DNA from: Escherichia coli
GTDB taxonomy: Bacteria; Pseudomonadota; Gammaproteobacteria; Enterobacterales; Enterobacteriaceae
NCBI RefSeq assembly: GCF_024502345.1
Contig: NZ_JALDNN010000001.1
Length of the DNA stretch: 64,000 nucleotides
Reading direction: 5' to 3' (one strand)
Shown here: positions 16,572-34,956 of the stretch, piece after piece
Layout of the letters: each line of letters opens with the position of its first letter
How positions within the stretch are numbered: the first letter of the stretch is position 1
The notes under the pieces: model-generated
Seen by the model: the letters and a program-made list of their open reading frames with translations, nothing else
Databases searched by the model: none
Told to the model about the DNA's origin: nothing
Translations under genes and position numbers: made by a program

Positions 16572-18158
16572 TTAATGCTCGCGGGTCTGGTGGAACTGAA
16601 CGTCCGGATAACGTTCCTGCGCCAGGCGCAGATTGACCATGCTGGTAGCGATGTAAGCGAGGTTATCGCCGCCATCAAGCGCCAGTTGGCTTTCGTTCTT
16701 ACGCTTGAACTCTTCGAATTTCTTCGCGTCCGCACATTCTACCCAGCGGGCAGTGGCAACGTTGACTGACTCATACACTGCTTCAACGTTGTATTCGCTC
16801 TTCAGGCGCGCTACAACCACATCAAACTGCAGCACACCAACTGCACCAACGATCAGGTCGTTGTTGGAGATCGGACGGAACACCTGCACCGCGCCCTCTT
16901 CGGAAAGCTGTACCAGCCCTTTGAGCAGCTGTTTTTGCTTCAGCGGATCTTTCAGGCGGATACGACGGAACAGTTCTGGTGCGAAGTTCGGAATACCGGT
17001 GAACTTCATCATCTCACCCTGGGTAAAGGTGTCGCCGATCTGAATGGTGCCGTGGTTGTGCAGGCCGAGGATATCGCCAGGATACGCTTCTTCAACGTGC
17101 GAACGGTCACCCGCCATAAAGGTCAGCGCGTCAGAGATCACCACGTCTTTCGCGGTGCGCACCTGGCGCAGCTTCATGCCTTTTTCATATTTACCGGATA
17201 CCACGCGCATAAACGCCACGCGGTCGCGGTGTTTCGGGTCCATGTTGGCCTGAATTTTAAATACGAAGCCGGTAAATTTGTCTTCGCTCGCTTGTACGGT
17301 ACGGGTATCAGTCTGACGCGGCATCGGCGCAGGTGCCCACTCCACCAGGCCATCCAACATATGATCGACGCCGAAGTTACCCAGCGCAGTACCGAAGAAT
17401 ACCGGAGTGATTTCGCCCGCAAGGAACAGCTCTTTGTCGAACTCGTTAGACGCGCCTTTAACCAGTTCCAGTTCGTCACGCAGCTGCTGTGCCAGATCTT
17501 CACCAACCGCAGCATCGAGATCCGGGTTATTCAGCCCTTTAACAATGCGGACTTCCTGAATGGTGTGCCCTTTACCGCTCTGATAGAGATAGGTTTCATC
17601 TTTATAAAGGTGGTAAACGCCTTTAAACAGCTTGCCGCAGCCAATCGGCCAGGTGATCGGCGCACAGCCGATTTTCAGCTCGTTCTCAACTTCATCGAGC
17701 AGTTCCATCGGGTCGCGGATATCACGGTCAAGTTTGTTCATAAAGGTGAGGATCGGCGTGTCGCGCAGACGGGTAACTTCCATCAGCTTACGGGTACGAT
17801 CTTCAACACCTTTTGCGGCGTCGATAACCATCAGGCAGCAGTCCACCGCCGTCAGGGTACGATAGGTATCTTCCGAGAAGTCTTCGTGCCCCGGGGTGTC
17901 TAGCAGGTTAACCAGGCAATCGTGATACGGAAACTGCATCACAGACGTAGTAATGGAGATCCCACGCTGCTTTTCCATCTCCATCCAGTCCGACTTAGCG
18001 TGCTGGTTGGAACCACGGCCTTTTACTGTACCAGCGGTCTGAATGGCCTGTCCGAACAGCAGCACCTTCTCGGTGATGGTAGTTTTACCGGCGTCCGGGT
18101 GAGAAATAATTGCAAAGGTTCTTCTTTTCGCTACCTCTGCGGCCAAAAGGCTTGTCAT
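16572..18158 (-). CDS. prfC: Peptide chain release factor 3 (RF3), with an N-terminus supplied by the adjacent prophage
   Basis: GTPase motifs [18 protein letters not shown]-terminus reads [15 protein letters not shown], differing from the ancestral [16 protein letters not shown] that survives as a fragment at 34906..34956. Confidence 0.9.
18098..18111. repeat. attL core: 14-bp direct repeat GGGTGAGAAATAAT inside the prfC 5' coding region
   Basis: Identical 14-mer recurs at 34892..34905; sequences outside the repeats together reconstruct an uninterrupted prfC 5' end. Confidence 0.7.
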
Positions 18159-18177: not shown

Positions 18178-18295
18178 ATGTACAATCATATGTACAAAGA
18201 AAAATTCATGCCGCTGATTGTACATTTTGGAGGTATCAGAGCATAGCAGAACATGATCAGTAGGTGTATTTGTAGCCAAAGAACATTTGTACATG
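18178..18295. promoter_or_regulatory. Cluster of four (A/T)TGTACA(A/T) repeats, candidate integrase arm-type sites
   Basis: ATGTACAAT, ATGTACAAA, TTGTACATT, TTGTACATG just inside attL; a similar cluster sits beside int at 34670..34729. Confidence 0.45.
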
Positions 18296-18318
18296 CAGCA
18301 ATCTTTGTTCTATTGACA

Positions 18319-18362
18319 CTGTTTATTCATACAGTTAAAAATAACACTGTATACAAACACAG
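18319..18362. promoter_or_regulatory. Two tandem LexA (SOS) boxes, CTGT-N8-ACAG, around a TTGACA -35
   Basis: CTGTTTATTCATACAG (18319..18334) and CTGTATACAAACACAG (18347..18362), directly upstream of the dinI-like ATG. Confidence 0.75.
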
Positions 18363-18377
18363 TGTAGAGGGATTTTT

Positions 18378-18626
18378 ATGCGTATTGAGATCTGCATAGC
18401 CAAAGAGAAAATGACTAAAATGCCAAACGGTGCTGTGGATGCGTTAAAGGAAGAATTAACTCGACGCATCAGTAAGCGTTATGACGATGTAGAGGTGATC
18501 GTAAAAGCCACCAGCAACGATGGCCTTTCTGTTACGCGCACCGCCGATAAAGATTCAGCTAAAACTTTTGTTCAGGAAACTCTGAAAGATACCTGGGAGT
18601 CTGCTGACGAGTGGTTTGTTCACTAA
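18378..18626 (+). CDS. DinI-family damage-inducible protein
   Basis: 82 aa [12 protein letters not shown]...[10 protein letters not shown], resembles DinI; preceded by LexA boxes. Confidence 0.8.
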
Positions 18627-19052
18627 TTAACACGTAAAATCGGTAACGGCTGGAAATCATTCAATACTCGCACTATCGGAAGTTCACCAGCCAACCGCAG
18701 CACGTTCTTGCATACGACGTGTCTGCGGTTTTTCAACCATTCAGATACAGCACTCTCATCACATTCATTCTTCCGCATTAAAGTATATATGACCATATCA
18801 CCTTAATATTTTTCTTCTTCAGATAAAAATTGTTATCTATGTATACTTTTAAACCGAATCCGTGTAGAGTCTCTACCTAAGTTAGTTCGCAGCTACCCCT
18901 TCAGTTTGCGCCATTAACCTCCTGACTTTTGCCGCTATCTGTAAGCATTCCTGTATACCTGAAACTACAGGGTTCATCTACGAACTTTAAGAACACCCAG
19001 GATAAAAATTGTCAACTATATTATATATAACACCATACTAATTCGAGGCTAT

Positions 19053-19165
19053 ATGAACAGCATACTGATAATCACTTCACTACTTATCATATTCAGCATT
19101 TTTGGTCATGCTCTAATAAAATTAGGGATTGGCATATCCAATAACCCGGACAAAACCGATGTATA
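19053..19165 (+). CDS. Small hydrophobic ORF (~37 aa, [37 protein letters not shown])
   Basis: ATG with weak GAGG RBS; one predicted TM helix; too short for the ORF track. Confidence 0.25.
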
Positions 19166-19201
19166 AGTCAACATATCCTGAATCAGACATACAATATTGC
19201 A

Positions 19202-19468
19202 ATGAAAACCAATAATATTTTAAGGAATATCTTCATGAAATCAAAAGACACCCTAAAGTGGTTCCCTGCGCAGCTTCCTGAAGTCAGAATTATCCTGGGA
19301 GATGCTGTCGTGGAAGTAGCAAAACAGGGAAGACCTATCAATACCAGAACATTGCTTGATTACATTGAAGGAAACATAAAGAAAAAGTCATGGCTGGATA
19401 ACAAAGAATTATTACAAACAGCGATATCAGTTCTTAAAGACAACCAAAATTTAAATGGTAAAGTGTAA
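19202..19468 (+). CDS. ydfK: YdfK/YnaE-like prophage cold-shock protein
   Basis: ...MKSKDTLKWFPAQLPEVRIILGDAVVEVAKQGRPINTRTLLDYIEGNIKK... matches remembered YdfK/YnaE; the true start may be the internal MKSKDT. Confidence 0.7.
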   Translation: MKTNNILRNIFMKSKDTLKWFPAQLPEVRIILGDAVVEVAKQGRPINTRTLLDYIEGNIKKKSWLDNKELLQTAISVLKDNQNLNGKV

Positions 19469-19847
19469 TACCTCCCCTGAAAAATAATTTTTCAATGCAT
19501 TAAAAAAATATCAACAACTACGTTATTCCGCAACAACCTACTTTTTTTACCATTTTTCCACTTTAACAACATTTTGCTCCACTTTTCCACGACCAAACAA
19601 CTTAAAATCTGGTTAAAATAACATACAACACTATTATTCGTCTTCCTCGAGTCCGCCCGGAGTTCGAAAAACAAACCGAGTTAAAGCCATTTTTCAAAAA
19701 ATCGATTTTTGGTTACACCAAAATTACGGGACTGCATCCGAATTCGTTTATTTTCGAACGTATACATACAAATATGTACAATAATAAGCGAAATAATTTT
19801 TGGATATGCATTATGATATGTACACCAATTTCGTATAGAGTCTCACT

Positions 19848-20438
19848 ATGTCTCGAATTTTTGCTTACTGTCGGATATCAACGCTGGATCAGACCCCCGA
19901 AAATCAACGCCGGGAAATCGAAAGTGCAGGTTTTAAAATCAAACCTCAGCAAATAATCGAAGAACACATTAGCGGCTCAGCAGCAACCAGTGAGCGTCCT
20001 GGTTTTAACCGGTTGCTTGCTCGCCTGAAATGTGGTGATCAATTGATTGTGACAAAACTGGATCGCCTTGGTTGTAATGCAATGGATATCAGGAAAACAG
20101 TGGAACAACTGACCGAAACAGGTATCAGAGTGCATTGCTTAGCATTGGGGGGCATTGACCTGACCAGTCCAACAGGAAAAATGATGATGCAAGTAATTTC
20201 AGCAGTCGCTGAATTTGAACGAGACCTTTTACTTGAACGCACTCATTCCGGGATAGTAAGAGCCCGGGGCGCAGGGAAACGTTTTGGTCGACCACCTGTG
20301 TTAAATGAAGAACAGAAACAGGTGGTATTCGAACGAATTAAGTCAGGTGTAAGTATAAGTGCCATTGCCCGGGAATTCAAAACCTCGCGGCAAACCATTT
20401 TAAGAGCCAAAGCAAAACTTCAGACACCTGACATATAA
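19848..20438 (+). CDS. pin: Serine recombinase, DNA invertase (Pin/Gin/Hin family)
   Basis: [28 protein letters not shown]... resolvase catalytic domain plus C-terminal HTH. Confidence 0.9.
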
Positions 20439-20535
20439 AAAATAATCTCGGTGTGAGATGCTTTACGTCTTCCAAGCCCCCTTCCTTGCCGTAAATGGAA
20501 AGATACATCTAATTATAGAATTTATATGTTTTACC

Positions 20536-21117
20536 CTACGGCAGTGCTGGCCATTCAATATCCTGTGCAGTTGACGTATCAACACGGTTCAGCAATACCC
20601 GATACTTTTTCCATGCTTCCAGCAACGAGATTTCTTCCTCCGTTGCAATTTCCAGATCTGCAGCATCCTGAAGCGGCGCAATATGCTCACTGGCTACCTG
20701 CATCAGGTTGTTTTTTGTTTCTTCCGCCTCCCGGATCCGGAACAGTTTTTCTGCTTCCGTATCCTTCACCCAGGCTGTGCCGTTCCACTTCTGAAACTCC
20801 CCTTCCGGGGATAACCAAGTGACATTTTCCGGTAATGGGCCAAGTTCAGAAATAAATAACGCGTCGCCGGAAGCCACGTCATAGACGGTTTTACCCCGAT
20901 GGTCTTCAACGAGATGCCACGATGCCTCATCACTGTTGAAAACAGCCACAAAGCCAGCCGGAATATCTGGCGGTGCAATATCGGTACTGTTTGCTGGCAG
21001 ACCTGTATGAGGTGGAATATATGCATCACCTTCACCAATAAATTCATTAGTTCCGGCCAGCAGATTATAAATTGTTATGGTCCGTGGTTGTTCACTCATT
21101 CTGAAATCCATGTTCAC
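20536..21117 (-). CDS. tfa: Tail fibre assembly protein (Tfa)
   Basis: 193-aa ORF with Tfa-like sequence, immediately downstream of the tail-fibre-like ORF. Confidence 0.8.
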
Positions 21118-21119
21118 CT

Positions 21120-22022
21120 CTACTTAATATCAGAGACAGAATATTGTTTATTGAACGTATGGGTGTGAGCACCAATAACGATGCTACTTCCGTGGCTATG
21201 TGCGCCAGAGATGACATTACCTACGGGATTTTCTGGATTAATCCGGTGTATATGCGAACCAGGGCGAAACCGGTTATTAGCCTGATGTTGTATCAGTACA
21301 TCATCAGCCTGATGTTCAGGGTTAATACAGACCTGCCCGGAACGTGAGCAATACGTCCGATAATCGCCGCATCCAATATATTTAGTATCCGCATAACGGC
21401 AAACAGAATTACCCGGACAGTATGCATATGTGCCAAATACTGCCGACTGGCGGGATTGTGCGTATTCCCAGTTAATTGATTCTGTTTTTTTATTAAAGTT
21501 ATCCCATGCCTGCTTCATCTGCCGGGCAACACTTTCAAACGGCACCTGACCACATCCGGCTCCCATTGCAGGGAATACCACCGTTTTTATTTTCCTGTCT
21601 GTCGTTGCGTGTTTATTGTGCTGAAAGATGGCAAGCAGAGCGGCCCAGGTTGCGTTATATACAGCGTCTGTTCCGTCAATTGTCAGCGGAACACGCATTG
21701 TTGGCGCATGTACCAGCCAGGGATGATGATTATGCCCCGTTTCAATAACAAATGCAGAACCTACAGGCTGCTCGCCGAGATATTCACGAAGAATATGATT
21801 CTGAACGCGGGACTGTAACTGAGTACCGAAGAATGCGGTAATGGCGGCATCAACACCGCCATCCATCAGGCCGAAACTGTTTGCCGCACTTACCATGCAG
21901 TCAAATTCCCTGATTGTTTCAAATGGCTTTCCGACAATATTCACATTATCTGCATTTGCGAATACCCGCTTAAATGCTTCAGCCATTTCTGTTACTGGTG
22001 CAGAAAGAATGAGCGTAATCAT
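21120..22022 (-). CDS. Macro-domain-like protein with a Cys-rich, HxH-repeat C-terminus
   Basis: Motifs [30 protein letters not shown]...[21 protein letters not shown] resemble the macro (ADP-ribose binding) fold; C-terminus GAHSHG...GAHTHT resembles tail-fibre HxH repeats. Confidence 0.55.
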
Positions 22023-22170
22023 GCAAGCCTCACAATATAGTTAAATGCGATGTTTTTGACGGTGTTTTCCGCGTTACCAGCAGCGTTAACGGTGATGGTG
22101 TGTCCATGTGACCCTATCGCAACGGAGTGCGTATGAGCACCAATACCGACAGTATGCGCGTGTGCACCTG
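22019..22170 (-). pseudogene. C-terminal fragment of side tail fibre (Stf) protein
   Basis: ...[51 protein letters not shown]; canonical Stf C-terminal end; N-terminal part missing. Confidence 0.7.
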
Positions 22171-22204
22171 CAGATACTGCTGTAAAAACGCATGAAATGT
22201 GCCG

Positions 22205-22892
22205 ACTCGTTAGCGGCTTTTTCGATCTGGCAGGAGCCTTTGATTTTAGGCGTCGAGCCGCGAATGGATTTTGGCCATACAGAGCCCTCAATACGTTTAT
22301 CCCCCAGCAGGGTTGGCGAACCCTCTTTTTCAACATCCGGTTCGAACGAGGAAAGTTCGTCATAGCAGACCACATCCACGGATTTTTCACGGTAGTTTTT
22401 GGCGGCAGCGCCGCCCAGGCACCATAAACCGACGCCCGATGAAAAGCGTTTCAGCGTGAGGGTATTATCACGATGTTTACGACCCAGCCATGGGGAAAGG
22501 TCTTTCAGGCATGGCACGTCCCTAATCGTCGTCTCCACGTGAGACTTCATAAAATCTTCAGCGGCAGAATCCGTGGGCTGAAAAAGCAGACTGTTTCGGG
22601 ATTTATGCTCAATAAAATACCCGACCACCCCCAGCAACATCTTTGTATAGCCAACACGGGCAGATTTAATCAGATTAACTGTGCGGATCTGATCATTCCC
22701 CATACTGTTCATGATGGCGATCTGGAACGGCAGCGTTTTCCATTCGCCGTCACCGTATGAGGATTCTTTCGGCAGATAATAATACTGATCAGCCCATTCA
22801 ACTGCCGTCATCGGTACAACCCTGACCAGAGGCTGCAGCGCAACCGAAACGGCAGCCATCAGATTATTCAGTTGTTGCTCTGATATATTCAT
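22205..22892 (-). pseudogene. Terminase large subunit (lambda gpA-like), N-terminal fragment only
   Basis: MNISEQQLNNLMAAV...TAVEWADQYYYLPKESSYGDGEWKTLPFQ...[34 protein letters not shown] aligns with lambda A residues ~1-250, then the frame degenerates into the stf fragment. Confidence 0.8.
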
Positions 22893-23367
22893 CCAGCAAA
22901 TCCGGTAATTTATCCCCTGCCCGCGCACACTGATTTGCGCCCTTCGCAATAAGGGTTTTCAGATGGTCAAGATGACGTGGCGTTAAATCCGGGAACTGTC
23001 GCTGCATGGATAACGGAATAGAATCAAGCGTACTGGACAATGCCATCGCCAGCTTGCTGAGGGCGAAAACGCAGAAGTCTGAATCGATGAGCTTACCTTC
23101 GGTTACCTGATTTTTAAGTTTTTGAGCTACGGCCTGTTCTTCTGTCAGTTCAGCTCTGGCCCGAAGCAGCCTTTCCTCCAGATCGCCCCCGTCATCAGGT
23201 GTTCTATGATTGTGTTGTCGCCGCTCGCGATCTATCTCCAGTACAGTTTTAACGTCATAAAAAACTTCCCTCCCCCGACGCTCGACAGGAGGAACGCCCC
23301 ATTTATCAAATGCCTGAACAGAGATACCGATGGAGGAGGCCATATCACTTTTATTCAATAAAAAGGC
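22864..23367 (-). CDS. Terminase small subunit (lambda Nu1-like, NohA/NohQ-type)
   Basis: MAFLLNKSDMASSIGISVQAFDKWG...LPLSMQRQFPDL...LDEYI resembles Nu1. Confidence 0.8.
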   Translation of the reverse strand, partial: AFLLNKSDMASSIGISVQAFDKWGVPPVERRGREVFYDVKTVLEIDRERRQHNHRTPDDGGDLEERLLRARAELTEEQAVAQKLKNQVTEGKLIDSDFCVFALSKLAMALSSTLDSIPLSMQRQFPDLTPRHLDHLKTLIAKGANQCARAGDKLPDLLDEYIRATTE

Positions 23368-23797
23368 CATCTCCTCTCCATAAGTCATCGATAAAAAGCG
23401 ATACAACAACCATGTGTTTTTACAAAACCATTTGATATCATTTAATTTTTTCACATTAATGACATCAAAGCACATCGTAAGGTTGTTGTATTTATTTTAT
23501 TTTCACCTTACTTATCAATTAGATATACCAAACAATTAAACAACAACCACCCCCTCAAAAAATCTCATAAATAGCGAAAAACCGCGAGGTCGCCGCCCCG
23601 TAACCTGTCGGATCGCCGGAAAGGACCCACAAAATGATAATAATTATCATCTACATATCACAACGTGCGTGTACGCCATCAAACCACGTCAAATAATCAA
23701 TTATGACGCAGGTATCGTATTAATTGATCCGCATCAACTTAACGTAAAAACAACTTCAGACAATACAAATCAGCGACACAGAATACGGGACAACCTC

Positions 23798-23989
23798 ATG
23801 TCAACGAAGAACAGAACCCGCAGAACAACAACCCGCAACATCCGCTTTCCTAACCAAATGATTGAACAAATTAACATCGCTCTTGATCAAAAAGGGTCCG
23901 GGAATTTCTCAGCCTGGGTCATTGAAGCCTGCCGTCGGAGACTAACGTCAGAAAAGAGAGCATCTACATCAATCAAAAGTGATGAATAA
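23798..23989 (+). CDS. YlcI/YnfO-family small prophage protein (DUF3950-like)
   Basis: MSTKNRTRRTTTRNIRFPNQMIEQINIALDQKGSGNFSAWVIEACRRRL; divergent from Nu1 as in DLP12/Qin. Confidence 0.65.
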   Translation: MSTKNRTRRTTTRNIRFPNQMIEQINIALDQKGSGNFSAWVIEACRRRLTSEKRASTSIKSDE

Positions 23990-24242
23990 TGAATATCCCG
24001 GTTTCTTTACCTCCCCTCCCACCCCGCACAGGACTGGCGAACGTGTGGGACAAATATGTGAGTCATAAACGCCTTATCTTCAGAAATGCAGTTGGCATCC
24101 GAACAGGACGATATTGTAACTTCACCTAATTACGAGGCATTGCAGTAGTTGAATTGTAGTTCTGTATTAGCCTGACAGTGACAGAATGCGATATTGACTC
24201 TGTCACAGGTGAAATAGTTTGAATGGTTAGCAGTTATGGCGA

Positions 24243-24449
24243 TCAGTCAACCACCAGGGAATAATCCTTCGAATTCTTATCGTGCTTCACCAACGCTGCC
24301 TCAATTGCCCTGAATGCTTCCAGAGACACTTGATGTTCTATACATGCAATTACAACATCCGGATAACTCATAGAAATGGTGCTAGTGAGCATAGTTTTTA
24401 CACGGACCTGATCCAAGGATGAGTCATCAGTGTATTGATCTTTATGCAT
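24243..24449 (-). CDS. Hypothetical prophage protein
   Basis: 68-aa ORF in the position of ydfO-like genes; no motif recognised. Confidence 0.3.
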
Positions 24450-24744
24450 TTTGTCGCTCCATGCGTTTGCTCTTCACTTGCGGCTAAAAATATAACGTCA
24501 AATCACTCAGCATGAAAGTGTGAAAGTTTCAGCGCGTTTCCCTTACATAATCTGTCGTTTGTATTCTCTCCAGGCATACCGGAAAGACTAGGTATTGTCA
24601 CACAACCAATACCACCGACTATCGAGATTTATATCTATTCGGTAATGTTTAAATATAAAAAAACCCCGTAAAAACGAGGTTTATGGGTAAATTGTATTGT
24701 TGAATAGCATCTGATAAGAAATTGATGCTAATACTATAAACACA

Positions 24745-24918
24745 CTAGATTAAATCAATCTTGATATCATAGCTTTCAAGACCAGTCATTTTTTCCCGTG
24801 CAGTAAACTGGATACTGGTAACTTCTTTCCCGGTCTTTTTCTTAAGCTCAATAATTTTTTTTGTTATATATTCAGAAATATCTGCTTCTGTTTTTGTTTT
24901 TAACTCTTCAATGTTCAT
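24745..24918 (-). CDS. gnsB: GnsA/GnsB-family protein
   Basis: MNIEELKTKTEADISEYITKKIIELKKKTGKEVTSIQFTAREKMTGLESYDIKI resembles GnsB. Confidence 0.75.
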   Translation of the reverse strand: MNIEELKTKTEADISEYITKKIIELKKKTGKEVTSIQFTAREKMTGLESYDIKIDLI

Positions 24919-25090
24919 CATTTCCTCTTTTAGTCTGTTATGACTTTCCTGGTACACAGTAGTGTCAATTATATGGAGCAAACGTATAAAAGATAAGATG
25001 AAACATCGCAATAATCAACATACGACAGTCTAAATTTCGCACAAACAGATAAAGATGATTATCCTTTATTATCAAGGCATTAGAATGAAA

Positions 25091-25360
25091 TCAATTCAAG
25101 AGTCTCATTGCTGCTTCCAGAATTTCTTCTGAAGTTACATGTCGATCCGCTGCTACATAAATGACTTTATGATCTCCGGTCAGAGATGGAAACCCTGCAG
25201 CCATTACAGTGAGATGTGTTGTTTCGCCATTTGGATATTCACGCATGATGGTGTTAACTCCGGTCATCACTGGCACTACCATTGCTGGTTCAGAGTTAAA
25301 AAAAACTATTATTTTTTTCATGATGTTACCGTAATATGTGAGTATCCATCGACTAGACAC
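25091..25360 (-). CDS. Hypothetical prophage protein (ynfN position)
   Basis: ORF between the gnsB-like and csp-like genes; identity uncertain. Confidence 0.35.
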   Translation of the reverse strand: MSSRWILTYYGNIMKKIIVFFNSEPAMVVPVMTGVNTIMREYPNGETTHLTVMAAGFPSLTGDHKVIYVAADRHVTSEEILEAAMRLLN

Positions 25361-25592
25361 TAAGCAAAAAAGCTCCCGAAGGAGCCTTCATTTTCACTTT
25401 CTTAAATCTAACGACAGACGGCTAACATTTAAGTATTGTGAAATATTATCAAATGTAATCATCATTGATTTACAAAAGATACATTTTGCCCCGAAAGGAT
25501 TCCTGTCAGAAACATCAAAAGATGATGTTCTATACTGAGAACCATGGCAACACGGGCATCTAAAGTGAATATGGTTTGTAATATTTTCTACC

Positions 25593-25805
25593 TCAAAGTG
25601 CCACTACATGAACAGCCGCGGGGCCTTTAGGTCCGTTCTCAATACCAAATTCGACTTGCTGATTCTCAGTTAACGTTTTGAAATCGTTGCTCTGAATAGC
25701 TGAGAAATGGACAAACACATCTTTGCTACCATCTTTCGGCGTGATGAAACCAAAACCTTTTTCAGGGTTAAACCATTTCACTAAACCAGTCATTTTGTTA
25801 GACAT
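25593..25805 (-). CDS. cspI: Cold-shock protein (CspA family), prophage copy
   Basis: [38 protein letters not shown]... RNP1/RNP2 motifs; the paralog name is a guess from Qin gene order. Confidence 0.8.
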
Positions 25806-26174
25806 CATTATTACCTTTTGAAGAAGTGAGCCCTTGGGCAGAATGGTCCGAAAAAAAATATCAGAGAGAAAAACCAACAAGGAAATCTCAAGAGGTACAA
25901 ATAATAAAATTATAACAATGACTGCTTCAGATAATTTTGTAACAAACCAGAACACCATTAACGCATGATTAACCAACCATAGCAAGGATTACTTTTGTAA
26001 AGAAAAACACACGAATGAAACAATAGCTTTATTTATTAATAAAACGTGTCATTCTGTCTAATGACCTTTTATCTTACCCTTAAGATTTCAAGGATTTTGA
26101 CTCATGGAAGAGTCCTTTTTATTTAAATTTCACATTCAGCGCTAAAAATAATCCGATTTAATGTTAATCTACAT

Positions 26175-27196
<1,022 letters not shown>

Positions 27197-27301
27197 GGAT
27201 ATTTATCAGGATTTATCGGTTTCTGAACCCTGGATATGTTTATCTGTCCCGGCCTGTTGAATCAGGCGGGGAAAAGGTAAAGACAATCAAGAGGATTATT
27301 T

Positions 27302-27574
27302 ATGGACAATAACACCATTTCTCTACAGGAGTTGCTCGACTGCATTTCAAAGCTTCGGGATGATGTAAATGCCCTCACTGTTGCATTTTCATATTTGGCC
27401 TTATCAATTCCCAGAGAACAAATGCAACCAACACTGGCATCGCTCCTGCTTGAATCACGCAACCCCAAATGGTCCCAGGAACAACAAAATTCTTTCAAGT
27501 GGCTGGCGGCATTACTGGAAGAAAAATATGCTGGTAAAATTACCATTTCGGTGGAGTCTTCAGAGAATCAGTAA
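27302..27574 (+). CDS. Hypothetical 90-aa protein on the strand opposite to the lysis cassette
   Basis: ORF fills the gap between endolysin and ydfR-like gene; hydrophilic, helical-looking; no homolog recalled. Confidence 0.25.
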   Translation: MDNNTISLQELLDCISKLRDDVNALTVAFSYLALSIPREQMQPTLASLLLESRNPKWSQEQQNSFKWLAALLEEKYAGKITISVESSENQ

Positions 27575-27884
27575 TTCTTCCTGGTAGCTTTCCTTTGTAG
27601 GTTATCCACACATTCTGCGCCTCTAAAATTACGGGGCGCTTTTCCGGCGACTGCTCATCCCCTTCACATAACCCGGCTGCAACTTCCAGGAAGACCTGTC
27701 TGATGCTCCTTCTGGCTGCTGCCTCATAAAACTCCAGCGCGGCACCTTCAACACGGTCCAGCGAGATGTCCAGGTCAAAAATTTCACCGTCAAAGCGTTT
27801 TTTGTCCCTTAATGCTACAGTTACCGCAACTTTATTCTCAAAATTGCGGATCCCTTTCACAATCAGTTCATAGTTTTGTGTCAT
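27540..27884 (-). CDS. YdfR-like prophage protein (DUF1327)
   Basis: Sits between holin and endolysin as ydfR does in Qin. Confidence 0.6.
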   Translation of the reverse strand: MTQNYELIVKGIRNFENKVAVTVALRDKKRFDGEIFDLDISLDRVEGAALEFYEAAARRSIRQVFLEVAAGLCEGDEQSPEKRPVILEAQNVWITYKGKLPGRITDSLKTPPKW

Positions 27885-27888
27885 TGAA

Positions 27889-28104
27889 TTACTCTCCCCG
27901 TGCAACCTTACGCTTGTCTTCTTTAATCTTGAAATAAAGGTTTGTCAGGTACGTCAGCAAGCCAAATACCAGACTACCCAGCACACCGATTGCAGCCCAC
28001 TGTGACGGAGTTACTTTATCGAGTAACTGCAATGCCCAGAAACCAGCATTACCAGCCGATGTGCCATAGGCGATACCTGTTGTTAACTTATCCATTGATT
28101 TCAT
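27889..28104 (-). CDS. Holin (phage 21 S / EssQ-like)
   Basis: 71 aa with TM segments WALQLL...[15 protein letters not shown] and a charged C-terminus. Confidence 0.8.
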
Positions 28105-28322
28105 ATCCTCACCCCGATGTACACAGATGGTGCAATATGTTTGAAAAGATCGGAGTCTATGGGGTAGTTTTTATAGCAAACGTTGTTCTCAACGGCGCTA
28201 AAAAACAGACACATTAAAAATGTGGGTAATTATTTTAAAAGAAAATCATATATTAAATAATAATACGAGATATGTTTTCATATTTAGTGTACTGTATACG
28301 GCCATTTATACAGGAAAAGCCT

Positions 28323-28493
28323 ATGTCAGAACGTAAAGACTCAAAATCACGCCGTAATTATCTCGTTAAATGTTCCTGCCCAAACTGCACCCAAGAGTCA
28401 GAACACAGTTTTTCAAGAGTACAAAAAGGTGCCCTTTTGATCTGCCCTCATTGCAACAAAGTATTCCAGACAAATCTTAAAGCTGTAGCTTGA
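28323..28493 (+). CDS. Small zinc-ribbon protein (CxxC...CxxC)
   Basis: MSERKDSKSRRNYLVKCSCPNCTQESEHSFSRVQKGALLICPHCNKVF; AGGAAA RBS. Confidence 0.4.
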   Translation: MSERKDSKSRRNYLVKCSCPNCTQESEHSFSRVQKGALLICPHCNKVFQTNLKAVA

Positions 28494-28552
28494 TTGATTT
28501 TATTCGTAACAAGTATTTTTTATATTTTAATAACATATTTAAAGCAGATAAT

Positions 28553-28577
28553 AAAAAACCCGCCTGAGCGGGTTTAA
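28553..28577. terminator. Hairpin ACCCGC-CTGA-GCGGGT with flanking A/T runs
   Basis: Perfect 6-bp stem with T-run on the minus strand. Confidence 0.5.
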
Positions 28578-28856
28578 TATTGTGGTACTTTTTGTGGGAG
28601 TCATCCACTTACGCACTTTGTTTTGCTATGCCAGCAGTTAGCTTCTGCTGTAAAACTATTCATGCAGCAAACCTGCACTTCACCACAATGGTTAGCATAC
28701 TTTTCCTGATTAAGTTATTGCCAAATATGCTGGCCATTGTTTCATGTATTGGACCTCCTTACTCTTTATTAAAGAGATCCAATATTCACCACTCTGTCTG
28801 TATCTCCACTCAGGCATCAGCCTTCTTCGTTATCGTATACAGACAAACTATGAATT

Positions 28857-29072
28857 TTAATCAGTAATTATGACATTTGCTGCTGCAGGACCTTTAGCAC
28901 CACTCTCTACAGAGAAGGTAACCTTTTGACCTTCAAATAAGATTCGATAATTATCATTCTGAATCGCAGAAAAATGCACAAACACATCTTTACTACCATC
29001 AACAGGAGAAATAAAGCCAAAACCTTTATCAGCGTTAAACCATTTTACTAAACCAGTCATTTTATTTGACAT
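28857..29072 (-). CDS. cspB: Cold-shock protein (CspB-like)
   Basis: [38 protein letters not shown]... Confidence 0.85.
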
Positions 29073-29372
29073 TCTACATTCCTTAACTTGAGCCTTTCGG
29101 CATAAATGGCTTGTATAACAGAAACGACTTCGTACTTAATTGGAGAGACTCAAAGAAGGAATAAGTGAATAACACCTGAAATGAGAACTGCTTTAGTAAA
29201 CTACTTCGTATATCGTCTGTTCTTCAAACCGACGCAATCATTAACGCATAGTTGAACATATGAAGCAATGTTTATTTTAGACATCCAGCCATCTTCAACC
29301 CCATCAAAAAACTATAGCTTTCTTCAGGAACGTGTGTATAGTGCGCCAAGTTATCAGTATTAAGGAATTTTT

Positions 29373-29585
29373 TTGTCCCGTAAAATGACAGGAATTCTCA
29401 AAACCTTTGACGGCAAAAGCGGCAAAGGTCTTATAACCCCATCCGATGGTCGTATCGATGTCCAGCTTCATGTTTCAGCGCTCAATCTCCGCGATGCAGA
29501 AGAAATTACCACCGGATTACGCGTGGAATTTTGCCGGATAAATGGTCTGCGTGGACCATCAGCTGCCAATGTTTACCTTTCATGA
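29373..29585 (+). CDS. cspF: Cold-shock-like protein (CspF/CspH-like)
   Basis: [39 protein letters not shown]... Confidence 0.8.
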
Positions 29586-29880
29586 GCTATATTAAAGCTT
29601 TAACTTCAAGCCCCATCGAATCAAACATGGAGAGTTTTCATGAATAAACCCGTCTGTCTTGATGACTGGTTGATTGGCTTTAAAAGCTTATGCTGTACTT
29701 TGACCTTAATAGCTCTGCTAATAATGTAATAAGCAGACTCATTGTATCTATGGACATTGTACTGGAAGAAAACATTTTAAACATCAGGCAAAAAACAAAG
29801 TCACCCGATAAATAATAAGTAAACTAACATGAATCCCGTAATGAGATTCAACATCTCTATTACCCTATTTAAAGCACAAA

Positions 29881-29905
29881 AACCCGCTCATCAGCGGGTT
29901 TTCTA
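29881..29905. terminator. Candidate late-operon terminator (tR'-like) downstream of Q
   Basis: CCCGCT-CATC-AGCGGG stem with T-runs on both strands, ~110 bp past the Q stop. Confidence 0.5.
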
Positions 29906-30007
29906 CTTTTTCTTAACTTCGGGTATACAAAGCCCATCGTTGAAAAAATTTTATCCATATTTTTTGAAAAATGCAAGCATCACGTCGCCATCTTCGGCGA
30001 AAATCAC

Positions 30008-30760
30008 TTATCTCGTCACCTTTCTCAATTGTGCTTCAGCGTAAGATTCCTCCTGCCAGCACTTTGTAACCAGTTTATCAATGACATTTGCATATCCTTT
30101 ATACCACTGATAATCACTCAGGTCCGGTACCAGCTTCTGGACATGATGCCGCGCCAGTGTGGTTGGTAAACGACTAAACCGTTTTCCATTGCAACGCCCA
30201 CAAATCTTATAAACAGGTGTGCCATGAAGCCGGGTCCTTTTTTCATCCAAGACAATACCTTTACCCTTACACCCTCTGCACGCTGTGCTGACTTCTCCCT
30301 TACCATGGCAATGCTGACATAGTTCCTTCACCCACTCTTCTTTGATAACAGATTCCCCGCTTCTGGAGTGTTTCACCACTTCGCGCAATACATTATGAAA
30401 TCCAGTACCAGCACAATGCTCACAACGAGCCTTACTTGCCGCAGACCTGGAATAATCAGCAAAGGCAAAATTCACAAGGTAAGGAATAATCTGTAGCCGG
30501 GTTTCTTCACTCAATTTATTCAATGTCGGGTTATCCAGTGCCATCGCGTAATTGAGCAGACCTTCAATCGCAAACTGAGGATCCTGAACACCAACTTTTG
30601 CCAGGAATAAGGCAAACCCAAGCGGTGCTTTCGACTGCACCATCCCCTGCGCAGCCATCACATCCGTAATCGTTAAACCACCAGAGCCTGTCGCCGGTGC
30701 GTCATCACTCAATTTTGGAGATTTTGGGGAGTAATATTTTGGTAAGGCTTCAAGGTTCAT
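30008..30760 (-). CDS. Late-gene antiterminator Q (QuuQ/phage 82 Q-like)
   Basis: 250 aa with Cys clusters CEHCAGTG, CQHCHGKG, CRGCKGKG, CGRCNG. Confidence 0.8.
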   Translation of the reverse strand: MNLEALPKYYSPKSPKLSDDAPATGSGGLTITDVMAAQGMVQSKAPLGFALFLAKVGVQDPQFAIEGLLNYAMALDNPTLNKLSEETRLQIIPYLVNFAFADYSRSAASKARCEHCAGTGFHNVLREVVKHSRSGESVIKEEWVKELCQHCHGKGEVSTACRGCKGKGIVLDEKRTRLHGTPVYKICGRCNGKRFSRLPTTLARHHVQKLVPDLSDYQWYKGYANVIDKLVTKCWQEESYAEAQLRKVTR

Positions 30761-30820
30761 GCTCGTTCTCCACTTACGCCAGTACGCCTATTGCCAGCGC
30801 ACGATCGATAAAACGAAATA

Positions 30821-31171
30821 TCAGCTCCAGCTGGGAGCCATACTTCTCTTCAAATGCCACGGTAAACGCTGGTTAATATCGGCATTGTCCACATCCTCGA
30901 CGTCAGGAAGAGACACAAAGACGCCATTTGCAGACTGCGCCACAGCGTCAGCAATGAAGTGAGTGCCACCAGCACGTTGTAAAATCATTGCCCATCCCAG
31001 CGGGAAAATCTGATCGCCATCGGCACGAAGGCGGTTAAATAATGCGTTCTCTGTTACATCCAGCCACTCAGCAGCTTCAGCGTACCCCACCGGCAACGCC
31101 GCGATAGTTTTTCTGACAGCTTTCACGTACCACTCAGGCTGTTTTTCCACTTTCCAGTGATGATTACCCAC
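30821..31171 (-). CDS. Phage regulatory protein, CII-like; possibly truncated
   Basis: 116-aa ORF overlapping the Cro-like gene stop and ending 60 bp before Q; no replication genes in between. Confidence 0.4.
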   Translation of the reverse strand: MGNHHWKVEKQPEWYVKAVRKTIAALPVGYAEAAEWLDVTENALFNRLRADGDQIFPLGWAMILQRAGGTHFIADAVAQSANGVFVSLPDVEDVDNADINQRLPWHLKRSMAPSWS

Positions 31172-31424
31172 GGCTTACCTCCTGTTCCTGTGGTTTAAAC
31201 CCATTCTGGTTTTGGCTAGATTGAAAACGTGCCGGATAAAGAATCTGCATTTCGCTGATTTCACCCTTAAAAAAATTGGCCAGACGTTCTGCAAGATCGA
31301 TAGATGGAATTTGTTCCAGTCTTTCAATACGACTCAGCGTCGCTGGATTGACCTGAACGCCAGCAGCAACATGCTGCAAAGTAAATCCGTGCGCCTTACG
31401 CACATTCCGTAATGGTGATTGCAT
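31164..31424 (-). CDS. Cro/antirepressor-like HTH protein
   Basis: HTH GFTLQHVAAGVQVNPATLSRIE; divergent from the cI-like repressor. Confidence 0.6.
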   Translation of the reverse strand: MQSPLRNVRKAHGFTLQHVAAGVQVNPATLSRIERLEQIPSIDLAERLANFFKGEISEMQILYPARFQSSQNQNGFKPQEQEVSRG

Positions 31425-31521
31425 ATGACCTCCACATATTGCGTGATGAGCATATTATTTCACGCAAATATTTTGCGCAAGTTGATTTGCTTAACGCGCA
31501 ATAAAGAAATGTAATAAACGC

Positions 31522-32214
31522 ATGAACATAGGAAACCGAGTCAGACAACTTCGCCAAGCGAAGAACATGAAAATCGCCGATCTCGCTGAAGCAATAGGAG
31601 TGGATGCGGCGAATATCTCACGCCTGGAAACAGGTAAGCAGAAACAATTCACTGAACAAGCCCTGAGTAATATTGCCAGGAGCTTAGGTGTTGATATTGC
31701 TGATCTCTTTACCTCAGACTTCAAAAGTAATACTGTATGTAAAAACAGTGTTAGTGAGGATGTTGCGCAGGTGAAGGATGTATTCCGTATTGAAATGCTG
31801 GATGTCAGTGCCAGTGCGGGAAATGGCCTTATCCAGGGCGGTGATGTCATTGATGTGATTCATGCCATTGAATACAGAACTGATAATGCTGTATCGATGT
31901 TTGGCGGACGGCCAGCCAATCACATTAAAGTTATCAACGTTCGTGGGGACAGTATGTGTCCAACCATTGAGCCAGGAGATCTCATCTTCGTTGATGTCAG
32001 TATCAATCAGTTTGATGGAGATGGTATCTATGTATTTGGTTTTGATGATAAAATTTATGTCAAACGACTGCAAATGATACCTGACAAACTACTGGTGATT
32101 TCTGATAACCAGATTTACCGTGAATGGGGAATTACCAGCGAAAATGAACACCGGTTTATGGTCTTTGGAAAGGTCTTAATCAGCCAGTCACAAACCCTTA
32201 AGCGACACAATTAA
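31522..32214 (+). CDS. CI-like repressor (HTH plus S24 LexA-type peptidase domain)
   Basis: N-terminal HTH IADLAEAIGVDAANISRLE; C-terminal GDSMCPTIEPGDLIFVD...VKRL Ser/Lys dyad. Confidence 0.85.
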   Translation: MNIGNRVRQLRQAKNMKIADLAEAIGVDAANISRLETGKQKQFTEQALSNIARSLGVDIADLFTSDFKSNTVCKNSVSEDVAQVKDVFRIEMLDVSASAGNGLIQGGDVIDVIHAIEYRTDNAVSMFGGRPANHIKVINVRGDSMCPTIEPGDLIFVDVSINQFDGDGIYVFGFDDKIYVKRLQMIPDKLLVISDNQIYREWGITSENEHRFMVFGKVLISQSQTLKRHN

Positions 32215-32234
32215 CCCTTACCTCCTCATCAATT

Positions 32235-32256
32235 AGCCACCCAAAGGTGGCTTTTC
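32235..32256 (+). terminator. Rho-independent terminator after cI
   Basis: AGCCACC-CAAA-GGTGGCT stem followed by TTTT. Confidence 0.65.
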
Positions 32257-32649
32257 ATTACCCTTTAAATTGCATATCTCGCAACAAAAACACTTGCATA
32301 ATGCGCAACTTCATTTTATCTTTCTTTCCAGACAAACAAACAAGGTACTAACAAAATTTGGTTGTAACACGGCGTATGGCACATGCGTCGTTAGCGGTCT
32401 GGGGACGTTAAAGGGGACAATCCACTCCTTGCTCGGGCAAACAAACCAGGTAGCCGGAATGTGCAAGTCAATGATGATGCTGATAAGACGCCTAACCAGC
32501 GTGGCGATTCGGTTTGACGCCTGGGAAGAGACCAGGGTGCAACGATGAGGGCATTTATGGAGCCGCGACAAAGTGTGGTGCCGTAACTGGCTAAGTGCTC
32601 TCAGCGTTGTGGTAATCCGCGAAATGGCGCGGCGGTAAGTATGGCGGGG

Positions 32650-33255
32650 TTACTCTTTCCCCGTTGAGGACACCGGATTGTCAGGTTGACCATACGCCTG
32701 AGTGACAACAACCAGACGATTCAGGGCAGTATCATCCGCCTTTTCCGGTAACAGCCCATGCAGGTATACAAGTCCATCCCAGCGGCTGTTTTTTGGAATT
32801 GGCAGCATCGGCGCTACATAGGCCTGAAAAGCCTGGCCTGTACGTTTAGCTGCCACATGAAAGAGACGGTCAAAGTTGGTAGTGACCAATCGAAGGGCAC
32901 CCTCGCGGCTACGGGCTAAACGTAACAGCGCCGCCTGAGTATCAATAGCGCCCCTACGACGGAACTTTGGCTTAAGGGCTTTTTCCAACGCGCGTCGGAC
33001 GGCTATACGCTGCCCTGGTAAGCGCCGTTCCAGCAAATCTAATGTGCCGTCAAATTGCCCACGCTCGAAAACCTCACGCTCAATTTCTGAAAGTGTTGTT
33101 CCGTTCCTCTGGTAAATTAGTTCTACCAACCCTTTGAAACCAGGTAAACCAGCAGGGTAGGAAATGCCTGCTCCACAGAAGAACACAACGCGCCCTTCCT
33201 CGTGCGCCTGCAAAAGCTCATCAGGAATATCAGGGCCGTTGGTAATGAATTGCAT
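32650..33255 (-). CDS. SIR2-like domain protein (short, 201 aa)
   Basis: VVFFCGAGISYPAGLPGFKGL (Rossmann GAG), VTTNFDRLF, LVYLHGLL match SIR2_2-type motifs as I recall them. Confidence 0.55.
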   Translation of the reverse strand: MQFITNGPDIPDELLQAHEEGRVVFFCGAGISYPAGLPGFKGLVELIYQRNGTTLSEIEREVFERGQFDGTLDLLERRLPGQRIAVRRALEKALKPKFRRRGAIDTQAALLRLARSREGALRLVTTNFDRLFHVAAKRTGQAFQAYVAPMLPIPKNSRWDGLVYLHGLLPEKADDTALNRLVVVTQAYGQPDNPVSSTGKE

Positions 33256-33437
33256 TCCTTTTCCTCCTATCCAATGTGCACGTTCATTCGAGTAAATGAA
33301 GGCAAGGGGTTACATCTTATTATACCGACCGTGCAAATCCGGCTTCCTAGCAAGCTACTTTACTTGCCAACTCATAATGTCCGAACTCCGAACAAAGCGG
33401 ACTGCTAGATTTGATTGCGTTCTAGCTACGCAAAATA

Positions 33438-34661
33438 TCATTTCGAGCCTAAACGAGTACAAGTAACAATCGATTCAACTCTCTCCCACCATGCCTGGTA
33501 GGCTTTACGCTGTTCTTCTAGATAATCACTCTTGTCATAAACTTGCCATACACCTGGCAGTTTATGACCGAGCATTATTTCAGCAATATGAGGCGCAGTA
33601 AGATCAGAAAAGTTTGTTCGTGCTGTTCGTCTCAAATCATGAAGAGACCAATGAGGAAATTGATACCCCAAACGCCGCCATGCGTACTGCATTAAATTGT
33701 AAGGCAGCGACTGCAATGATGTCCGACCAACTGGTTCCCTGCTTCCTTCCTTAGTAAAAAGCATATCGGAACCGTTGTTCATAGAGATAACGTATTTTAT
33801 AAGCTCTTCAACCGGTTCAATAATGGGCCGCTTTAGCGGTTCGCCTGTTATATCCCCTGTCTTATGTCGTTCTGGTGGTACAGTCCATATTTTATTAATG
33901 AAATCAAAATCGTCCACCTTGGCAGTAATTAGCTCTGAACTACGGCAACCAAAATGCAGCAATAGTTTAATGAAGGCCCGGTATTTAGGAACCATTCGAG
34001 AACCATCGATCGCAGCATAAAGGATTTTAATTTCATCATGTGTCAGAAACCGTTTCTTCTGACCTTTACGGATATCCATATCTTTACCCGTGATATCCGA
34101 CAGCGGGCGAGTTTCAATGAGCTTTCTCTTATACGCCCAGACATGGGCCTGCTTTGCGTTAATTAGCAATCGGTCTGCTATTGCTGGAGTCTTAGTGCTA
34201 AGAGGCTCCAGGACTTCTAACCAATCATGCAATGTAGCTGCATCGTGAGGGATATTCCCGATTTTAGAGAACAGGTGCAGCTCAAACGAGCGGAGTATCT
34301 GTTCAGAACCTTTTTTATTTTTTACACAATATGCTTCATACCAAGCACGGATCACAGATTCTACCGTCATGGCTTCAGTAGCTTTACGTTTTTCTGCCAG
34401 CTTGACCAATCGTGGATTGCGGTTTGACTCGAGTTCACCACGAAGACGGATAACTTCTTCTCTGGCCTCTTTTAGTCCAGTTGCCGGGTAAGTTCCGATA
34501 TCAAGACGCTCACCTTTCCCCGCCCACTGATAACGATATTGGAACACTACGCGACCTTTCGGTGATACTCTAACAGACAGACCATCACGATCGGATTTAA
34601 CCAAAACCTTATCACGTTCCTTTCCAAGGACTGAACGCAACCACGCATCAGACAGCGCCAT
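33438..34661 (-). CDS. int: Tyrosine integrase, P4-type
   Basis: 407 aa; N-terminal DUF4102-like arm-binding region (MALSDAWLRSVLGK...GLSVRVSPKGRVVFQYRYQ), C-terminal catalytic region with HDLRRT...LGHK. Confidence 0.9.
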   Translation of the reverse strand: MALSDAWLRSVLGKERDKVLVKSDRDGLSVRVSPKGRVVFQYRYQWAGKGERLDIGTYPATGLKEAREEVIRLRGELESNRNPRLVKLAEKRKATEAMTVESVIRAWYEAYCVKNKKGSEQILRSFELHLFSKIGNIPHDAATLHDWLEVLEPLSTKTPAIADRLLINAKQAHVWAYKRKLIETRPLSDITGKDMDIRKGQKKRFLTHDEIKILYAAIDGSRMVPKYRAFIKLLLHFGCRSSELITAKVDDFDFINKIWTVPPERHKTGDITGEPLKRPIIEPVEELIKYVISMNNGSDMLFTKEGSREPVGRTSLQSLPYNLMQYAWRRLGYQFPHWSLHDLRRTARTNFSDLTAPHIAEIMLGHKLPGVWQVYDKSDYLEEQRKAYQAWWERVESIVTCTRLGSK

Positions 34662-34669
34662 TACTCACC

Positions 34670-34729
34670 TTGTACAAATAACAAAAAACCTCTGCTGTTT
34701 TGTACATTATGTACAAGCACATGTACAGA
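34670..34729. promoter_or_regulatory. Cluster of four (A/T)TGTACA(A/G) repeats beside int, candidate arm-type sites
   Basis: TTGTACAAA, TTGTACATT, ATGTACAAG, ATGTACAGA within 60 bp of the int start. Confidence 0.45.
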
Positions 34730-34884
34730 TTTTTGATGAAAGTAACCTGATCAATTTAAAGTTACATGAAAGAATTTTCAATCAAAGAAATCACATAACA
34801 TCATGTTATTAAATGAGTTATATAATTATCACTCAATTAATCGAAAGGATTTTGAAAGAGTAAAAGAGCTTTTATTTGGGCTTA

Positions 34885-34956
34885 ATTATTGGGGTGAGAA
34901 ATAATGGCAAAAGTGCGGCGCTTCGCCACCTCTTGCAAATAAGGAGACAACGTCAT
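34885..34956 (-). pseudogene. prfC: Displaced ancestral 5' end of prfC ([22 protein letters not shown] then stop)
   Basis: Reverse complement encodes the remembered K-12 RF3 N-terminus for 22 codons, then runs into island sequence and stops. Confidence 0.8.
34892..34905. repeat. attR core: second copy of GGGTGAGAAATAAT
   Basis: Identical to 18098..18111. Confidence 0.7.

Follow-up and report, generated by a model that had tools for sequence, protein, structure and literature searches.

TGTACA-centred repeats inside both ends of a prfC-integrated prophage remnant of Escherichia coli as probable arm-type sites of its integrase

Which protein recognizes the short TGTACA-centred repeats that lie just inside both ends of a prophage integrated at the 5′ end of prfC in Escherichia coli, and what could they contribute to its mobility? 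The locus is contained in a stretch of 64,000 nucleotides of contig NZ_JALDNN010000001.1 (assembly GCF_024502345.1), hereafter called the window, and the element is a lambdoid prophage remnant of 16.8 kb that carries a gene for a tyrosine integrase (int, product Int). An initial annotation, made from the sequence alone, had noticed matching clusters of the repeat at the two ends of the element, likened them to arm-type integrase binding sites and proposed that the attachment (att)/int module may still be competent for excision. Our analysis recovered both clusters, with four sites each. They are bracketed by two copies of the core GGGTGAGAAATAAT, a 14-bp identity that covers prfC codons (..AIISHP) and contains no TGTACA. 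We consider it very probable that the eight sites are the arm-type binding sites of the heterobivalent tyrosine integrase of the prophage. This reading is strongly supported by the comparative data: Int possesses an arm-binding domain, the sites are present in both arms, they are conserved amid diverged DNA, and the motif and the N-terminal domain of Int change in concert.

The hexamer TGTACA starts at positions 18179, 18191, 18219 and 18288 in the left cluster and at 34671, 34701, 34710 and 34722 in the right one, i.e. four copies within 141 bp and four within 74 bp. Its frequency over the whole window is unremarkable (14 occurrences versus 10.8 expected), and eight of these 14 copies fall in the two clusters. 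None of 20,000 dinucleotide-preserving shuffles of either arm produced four TGTACA. The density is not a general property of AT-rich DNA either, as the other AT-rich tiles of the window contain 0.39 TGTACA per kb (Poisson P of about 4e-7 for the left cluster and 3e-8 for the right one), so that the objection which the initial annotation had itself raised does not hold. The extended site is asymmetric: six of the eight copies read ATGTACAA, the remaining two being TTGTACAA (s5) and ATGTACAG (s8; sites are numbered as in Table 1).

Once the two ends are joined at the core, the order and + strand orientation of the sites in attP are s5−, s6−, s7+, s8+, core, s1+, s2+, s3− and s4−. The pairs s1-s2 and s7-s8 are both tandem, phased by 12 bp and in the same orientation. 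The left sites lie 69-197 bp inside their core and the right sites 165-221 bp inside theirs, the right cluster beginning 9 nt upstream of the int start codon (34659-34661, minus strand). The motif is unrelated to the core sequence and is repeated in both attP arms away from the crossover, as is characteristic of arm-type sites. The reconstruction agrees with the circular genomes of phages cdtI and Ayreon, in which attP consists of int, four sites, core and four sites, and phage 2H10 shows the same succession of four sites, core and four sites. All eight sites of the window are identical to those of cdtI and Ayreon, and its distal arm is 100% identical to that of phage PhiR63_1. In related E. 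coli phages (Ayreon and L179; L numbers designate individual loci) homology breaks just past s4, which places the outer limit of attP near 18294-18320 and gives an attP of about 430 bp.

The second arm is also recognizable in more distant elements. Its phased pair precedes the element-borne prfC start by 17-21 nt in L217/L218, L238 and L200, and by about 8 nt in L215/L216. For Klebsiella phage 5 LV-2017, the record displays the int-side arm, and no recognizable second arm was found at its other end.

Table 1. Coordinates of the integration module and neighbouring features in the window.
Feature	Position	Strand	Remark
Arm site s1, ATGTACAAT	18178..18186	+	First of the int-distal pair; 20 nt upstream of the element-borne prfC start codon
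Arm site s2, ATGTACAAA	18190..18198	+	Second of the int-distal phased pair
Arm site s3, ATGTACAAT on the minus strand	18217..18225	-	Inverted relative to s1 and s2
Arm site s4, ATGTACAAA on the minus strand	18286..18294	-	Outermost int-distal site
Arm site s5, TTGTACAA	34670..34678	-	Inverted, int-proximal; abuts the int ribosome-binding site
Arm site s6, ATGTACAAA on the minus strand	34699..34707	-	Invariant in the E. coli, Salmonella, Pantoea and Trabulsiella group
Arm site s7, ATGTACAAG	34709..34717	+	First of the int-proximal 12-bp-phased pair
Arm site s8, ATGTACAGA	34721..34729	+	Second of the int-proximal pair; 165 bp from the core
Core (crossover) copy	18097..18110		Junction with the intact prfC body
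Core copy	34892..34905		Int-side junction; displaced native prfC 5′ end beyond
Tyrosine integrase (int), 407 aa	33438..34661	-	Apparently intact
Hybrid prfC, 528 aa	16572..18158	-	First codons prophage-supplied (translation)
Displaced native prfC 5′ end	34906..34953	-	Encodes the native N-terminus (translation)
Segment shared with phage cdtI	32350..32709		100% identical to DNA just upstream of cI in cdtI; now abuts the SIR2 fragment (32650-33255)

The family of this integrase was scanned with one genome per species, which yielded 80 loci with Int sequences 43-99% identical to that of the window; 76 of them were analysed. A first scan of viral contigs with an Int alignment had returned only copies that were 97-100% identical, of no use for divergence, and when small islands were sought by means of 15-mer repeats across int, only chance matches resulted. 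In the 76 loci, the 120 bp upstream of int contain 155 TGTACA (17 per kb), and all the other sequence, 1.225 Mb, contains 154 (0.126 per kb). The motif is thus enriched 135-fold in these 120 bp, which are also the sole place in each locus (up to 21 kb) where at least three TGTACA cluster. A GTACA-N7-GTACA pair is present upstream of int in 66 of the 76 loci, with six occurrences elsewhere, and an unbiased search for the best repeat in a 12-bp register recovers it in nearly every locus. Read in the sense of int, the common layout comprises a pair, TGTACATAnnn(G)TGTACATAA, about 55-75 nt upstream of the ATG, followed by an inverted site, TTATGTACA(C/A), about 15-20 nt upstream; this inverted site near −15 to −20 is kept in most relatives. 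The family consensus in the prfC/int-sense orientation is (G/T)TGTACA(T/A)A.

The sites also stand out as a footprint of conservation. When 38 distinct int-side arms were aligned, the 24 TGTACA columns were 99.2% identical to the window (18 of them invariant), against 78.7% for the other 206 columns (14 invariant). All four int-side sites are retained with the same spacing in Salmonella (Int 85% identical), Pantoea stewartii (83%) and a metagenomic relative (78%), the intervening DNA having diverged, and Xenorhabdus (64%) has four sites with a different spacing. The target is prfC in 38 of the 76 relatives, with the same core always located 220-260 bp upstream of int over the whole range of Int identity (43-99%), and this constant distance suggests tight geometric constraints on the arm. 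The others retain the motif at other targets. Overall, the motif is found from Acinetobacter to Burkholderiales and Alphaproteobacteria.

In several lineages, every copy of the motif has changed together. It has become TGTCCAT, with the layout kept, in L154, L163, L172 and Klebsiella phage 5 LV-2017 (a set that includes Budvicia and Serratia PL17). It has become GGTGTAAAT in L144 and L148, two metagenome-assembled genomes, and GGTACAAAT in L119, L153 and L157; the layout of a pair plus an inverted site is preserved in both cases. Residues of the Int N-terminal domain vary along with the motif. Among the GTACA-type loci, Q41 is nearly universal; L119 and L153 (the GTACAAAT variant) depart from it, with Y40/S41. 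All four GTCCA loci have W29, F41, K52 and T54, and the GGTGTAAAT loci have N29 and M41. A natural specificity control is provided by L190/L191 (viral contig 3300038708_000015), whose Int is 32% identical and has a DUF4102 domain; it uses the same prfC core and carries a different repeat, GGGKGCCAT, in both arms. Because about half of the TGTACA-type relatives are not located at prfC, the motif follows the integrase and neither the target site nor the host. The motif switches, the relatives at other targets and L190/L191 together argue against a host factor and against an effect of the target site. Enrichment, footprint and concerted switches all point to a motif that is specific to the integrase lineage and under selection, as arm-type sites should be.

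Int itself has the domain organization required to bind two kinds of sites. Besides its core-binding (Phage_int_M, PF22022) and catalytic (Phage_integrase, PF00589) domains, it contains an Arm-DNA-bind_3 domain (PF13356, or DUF4102; residues 3-87, E 8e-16), as heterobivalent integrases do. It is 97% identical to a cluster of 407-aa proteins with 2139 member sequences. The catalytic residues R240, K267, R344, H366 and Y375 fall in invariant columns of a 23-sequence alignment and H341 in a nearly invariant one. Together with the DUF4102 arm domain, these R-K-H-R-H-Y residues place Int in the SXT cluster of the IntSXT subgroup of integrases, as does the restoration of the prfC reading frame by element-borne 5′ codons, visible in the window. 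The displaced 5′ end beyond the int-side core matches the annotated prfC of element-free E. coli genomes. The closest solved structures, 3JTZ and 3JU0, are isolated arm-binding domains. In the AlphaFold model, strands 28-32, 38-46 and 49-57 are followed by a helix (predicted local distance difference test scores of about 80-87 over residues 30-60), and residues 29, 41, 52 and 54 are predicted to sit on these three consecutive strands. In lambda Int and Tn916 Int, the equivalent beta-sheet contacts arm DNA. A shared fold is noted in PMC8138268.

The motif is also present in an integrative conjugative element (ICE). The SXT/R391 element R997, found in a plasmid collection, encodes an Int that is 38.5% identical overall, with a conserved N-terminal domain that includes S29, Q41, R52 and D54. 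Its attP, located between setR and xis, contains six GTACAAA that form three phased GTGTACAAA pairs on one strand, a count reached by none of 20,000 shuffles. Of the three pairs, one precedes the ICE-borne prfC start by about 18 nt, another is located about 150-165 bp away on the opposite side of the core (matching the 165 bp of s8 in the window) and the third about 390 bp out. Like the integrase of the window, IntSXT of SXT/R391 targets the 5′ end of prfC, for which the element supplies a replacement N-terminus (PMC8409611). It likewise has a DUF4102 arm-binding domain, and the R997 pairs are phased by 12/13 bp. The Int of phage cdtI and IntSXT belong to one prfC-targeting cluster (PMC8138268). 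In contrast to the window, R997 has xis between attP and int, its int is transcribed towards attP and its Xis is unrelated. L113 (Shewanella) and L118 (Morganella) had also been considered as SXT-type ICEs and were rejected, as they look like prophages.

From these comparisons, we infer that Int binds the repeats and that the repeats serve in recombination. The C-terminal domains of Int would act at the core inside the prfC codons, while the N-terminal Arm-DNA-bind_3 (DUF4102) domain would engage the TGTACA sites in the two arms by insertion of a three-stranded beta-sheet. By bridging the arms to the core, Int would build the intasome, with one phased tandem pair per arm (s1-s2 and s7-s8) and the inverted single sites s3, s4, s5 and s6 as its points of attachment. 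Transcription of int leads away from the att junction next to it, and the 230 bp between its start codon and the core hold all four int-side sites, an arrangement of the KplE1 type. By analogy with KplE1 IntS (PMC2951348), Int bound to these sites, among them s5 next to the int ribosome-binding site, probably also represses int.

Other origins for the repeats have to be weighed against arm-type sites. It is hardly credible that the clusters arose by chance from AT-rich intergenic DNA or from promoter hexamers that overlap. Both regions are indeed AT-rich (32-36% GC) and TACAAT resembles a −10 hexamer, but such an origin is refuted by the shuffles, by the enrichment across 76 independent loci and by the footprint in 38 arms. 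It is further at odds with the low background of AT-rich DNA, with a site spacing that is wrong for a −35/−10 pair and with a promoter scan that does not rise above shuffled expectation. We also regard a purely regulatory function as improbable, in which a transcription factor of the host or of a phage would use the repeats as operators to control int and the rebuilt prfC, and recombination would make no use of them. TGTACA is palindromic, and the sites stand immediately upstream of two start codons, those of int and of the element-borne prfC. However, the site in its extended form is asymmetric, what is conserved is a direct repeat phased by 12 bp and not an inverted one, and lineages with TGTCCAT have broken the palindrome. 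A single host factor would moreover be difficult to reconcile with the taxonomic breadth of the motif, from Acinetobacter to Alphaproteobacteria, and the elements of Klebsiella and Serratia, whose hosts are close to E. coli, have both a different motif and a different Int N-terminal domain.

The repeats could finally be bound by a recombination directionality factor (excisionase) or another accessory protein and not by Int. Excisionases do bind tandem direct repeats in att arms, and a conserved excisionase family travels with this integrase in its relatives. We nevertheless find this explanation unlikely to be correct, because the motif is present in both arms and its switches track residues of the Int N-terminal domain. 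In addition, ICE R997 combines an unrelated Xis with the same motif and a conserved Int N-terminal domain, and a better candidate for an excisionase site is a second repeat, TGAAAG (see below), which occurs in one arm only, in the stretch from the TGTACA sites to the core.

Several points weigh against the assignment of the repeats to Int as arm-type sites, or at least against some of its parts. The covariation between motif and Int residues is supportive rather than decisive, since there are only three or four independent lineage switches and shared ancestry could explain part of the pattern. Eight sites exceed the four arm-binding domains of one Int tetramer; lambda likewise has a surplus, with five arm sites that are used differentially. 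A scan of both arms detected no good consensus for integration host factor between the sites and the core, the single match, with one mismatch, being at 34827. Promoter scans revealed no convincing promoter for int or for the hybrid prfC, only the dinI promoter and its LexA box; upstream of int, they returned one weak site (34781-34753) with 9/12 matches, no better than shuffles give. As the int promoter is not convincingly placed, the autoregulation of int is proposed by analogy only. Finally, we found no binding or recombination experiment in the literature for this Int or its close relatives.

The arm-type reading is in keeping with what is known of better studied systems, and in sequence the repeats show all the properties expected of this class. 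The lambda Int arm sites (P1, P2 and P′1-P′3) belong to a heterobivalent Int as well and consist of a short motif, distinct from the core, which is repeated in both arms; some copies stand in tandem at a spacing of about one turn of the helix, and both orientations occur. The number of conserved positions, about five, is the same in the two systems. The lambda arm-site consensus is C/AAGTCACTAT, whereas the motif of the window family is centred on TGTACA, its attP is larger than that of lambda, and int is transcribed away from att and not towards it. The arm domain of the window Int (PF13356/DUF4102) also differs from the Pfam family of the lambda domain by an extra strand and a helix (PMC8138268). 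In the KplE1 IntS/TorI system, HK620 and Sf6, int has its own promoter region within the adjacent att arm (PMC2951348), as is presumed for the window. In KplE1, this region is overlapped by arm-type sites and int is repressed by its own product (PMC2951348). KplE1 differs from the window in its target, the tRNA gene argW, and in its motif, and the Int of Sf6 is about 22% identical to that of the window. The dusA-specific integrases of genomic islands and prophages (PMC8409611) have a target gene other than prfC.

The closest relatives are the prfC-integrating phages cdtI, Ayreon and those of the Stx1a/Stx2c type (PMC8138268, PMC10132054), whose Int proteins are 95-99% identical to that of the window and whose eight attP sites are unchanged. 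The same integrase and attP are thus found in cdtI, Ayreon, 2H10 and Stx1a/Stx2c phages. At least 80% of a query made of int plus its arm is present in 697 of 5,426 complete E. coli genomes (about 13%). In contrast to the remnant described here, these are complete phages, and cdtI has an annotated excisionase.

Arm-type sites as such are an expected part of any lambda-like integration module. Beyond this, one can tentatively imagine, although we would rather not count on it, an arm-site 'code' in which (G/T)TGTACA(T/A)A, fixed in both arms as 12-bp-phased tandem pairs, is read by Int residues 29, 41, 52 and 54, and in which occupancy of the sites might couple recombination to the expression of int and of release factor 3. 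Such a code may be common to Stx/CDT phages, prophages of many Proteobacteria and SXT/R391 ICEs, with a pair abutting the element-supplied prfC start and another site abutting the int start. In the literature that we searched, which did not extend to the founding SXT papers, the motif is not described in connection with attP, arm-type sites or SXT, and neither a code of this kind across the family nor its occurrence in an SXT/R391 element appears to be described there. The generality of the observation adds to its value: from E. coli Stx/CDT phages to ICE R997, integrases with 38-99% identity share motif and geometry. If confirmed, the motif would offer a simple sequence signature by which attP, attL and attR could be delimited in these elements. 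It would also supply candidates for the residues that determine specificity, of use if the arm-binding domain is to be re-targeted, and a testable link from integrase occupancy to the expression of int and the rebuilt prfC.

The proposal that the module is still competent for excision could be retained only in part. An intact integrase, both cores and both arms are present, with all eight sites as in cdtI and Ayreon. What the window lacks is a homologue of an excisionase: those of cdtI (orf34), Pantoea (L008), Xenorhabdus (L009), L093 and L091 gave no tblastn match in the window better than E 0.6, and no element-encoded recombination directionality factor was found within these 64 kb. In the relatives, xis is located between int and cI. 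Since the segment now next to the SIR2 fragment corresponds to cdtI DNA upstream of cI (Table 1), the interval that holds xis in the relatives has been deleted in the window. With xis missing, Int could still recognize the module, but efficient unaided excision of the remnant is unlikely. Excision would require an excisionase supplied in trans, or else be very inefficient, and the remnant is probably locked in place unless a related phage provides this protein.

The second repeat mentioned above, TGAAAG, occurs in four copies on the + strand (34738..34858, with starts at 34738, 34768, 34843 and 34854). These blocks are kept in the 38-sequence alignment, including the relatives from Salmonella, Pantoea and Trabulsiella. 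They are candidate sites for an excisionase or a host factor.

Traces of older integrations were observed in related loci. Fossil arms lie past the int-side core in L091 (2560-3010), L106 (around 5600), L174 (around 9680) and L190 (downstream of the core). They consist of a prfC 5′ fragment preceded by a phased pair of the GTACA type, and that of L106 uses the motif variant of its own lineage. The sequences of these fossil arms imply serial or tandem integration at prfC, as documented for SXT/R391 (PMC5812530). A block that starts at s3, TTGTACATTTTGGAGGTATCAGAGCATAGCAGAAC (18215-18250), is kept in L091, in its fossil arm, although the identity of the Int proteins is only 57%. This block may hold an element-supplied promoter for the rebuilt prfC; no consensus promoter was found in it. 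Within the window itself, a further pair of TGTACA at 19775 and 19819 (19774-19824), upstream of a pin-like serine invertase gene (19848-20438), was considered as a fossil arm and rejected. In the homologous region of phage Tritos, whose flanks are 94% identical, the two hexamers read TGCACA and TGAACA, and since they are not conserved there, the pair is probably coincidental.

The remaining cargo of the element comprises a dinI-family gene with a LexA box, the pin-like invertase gene, fragments of tail-fibre assembly and terminase genes, a Q gene, a cI-like repressor gene and a SIR2 fragment. The dinI-family gene (18313-18626) is located directly outside arm site s4 and has a sigma-70-like promoter together with the LexA box CTGTATACAAACACAG (18345-18364); this end of the prophage carries in it an accessory gene under SOS control. 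A gene for a macro-domain protein (21120-22022) lies amid the tail and terminase fragments. At the other end, the truncated SIR2-like gene (Dsr1-type defence) adjoins int, and the slot beside int varies in related E. coli prophages, being occupied by SIR2/Dsr1, a gene for a CHAT-domain protein, or cdtI orf33.

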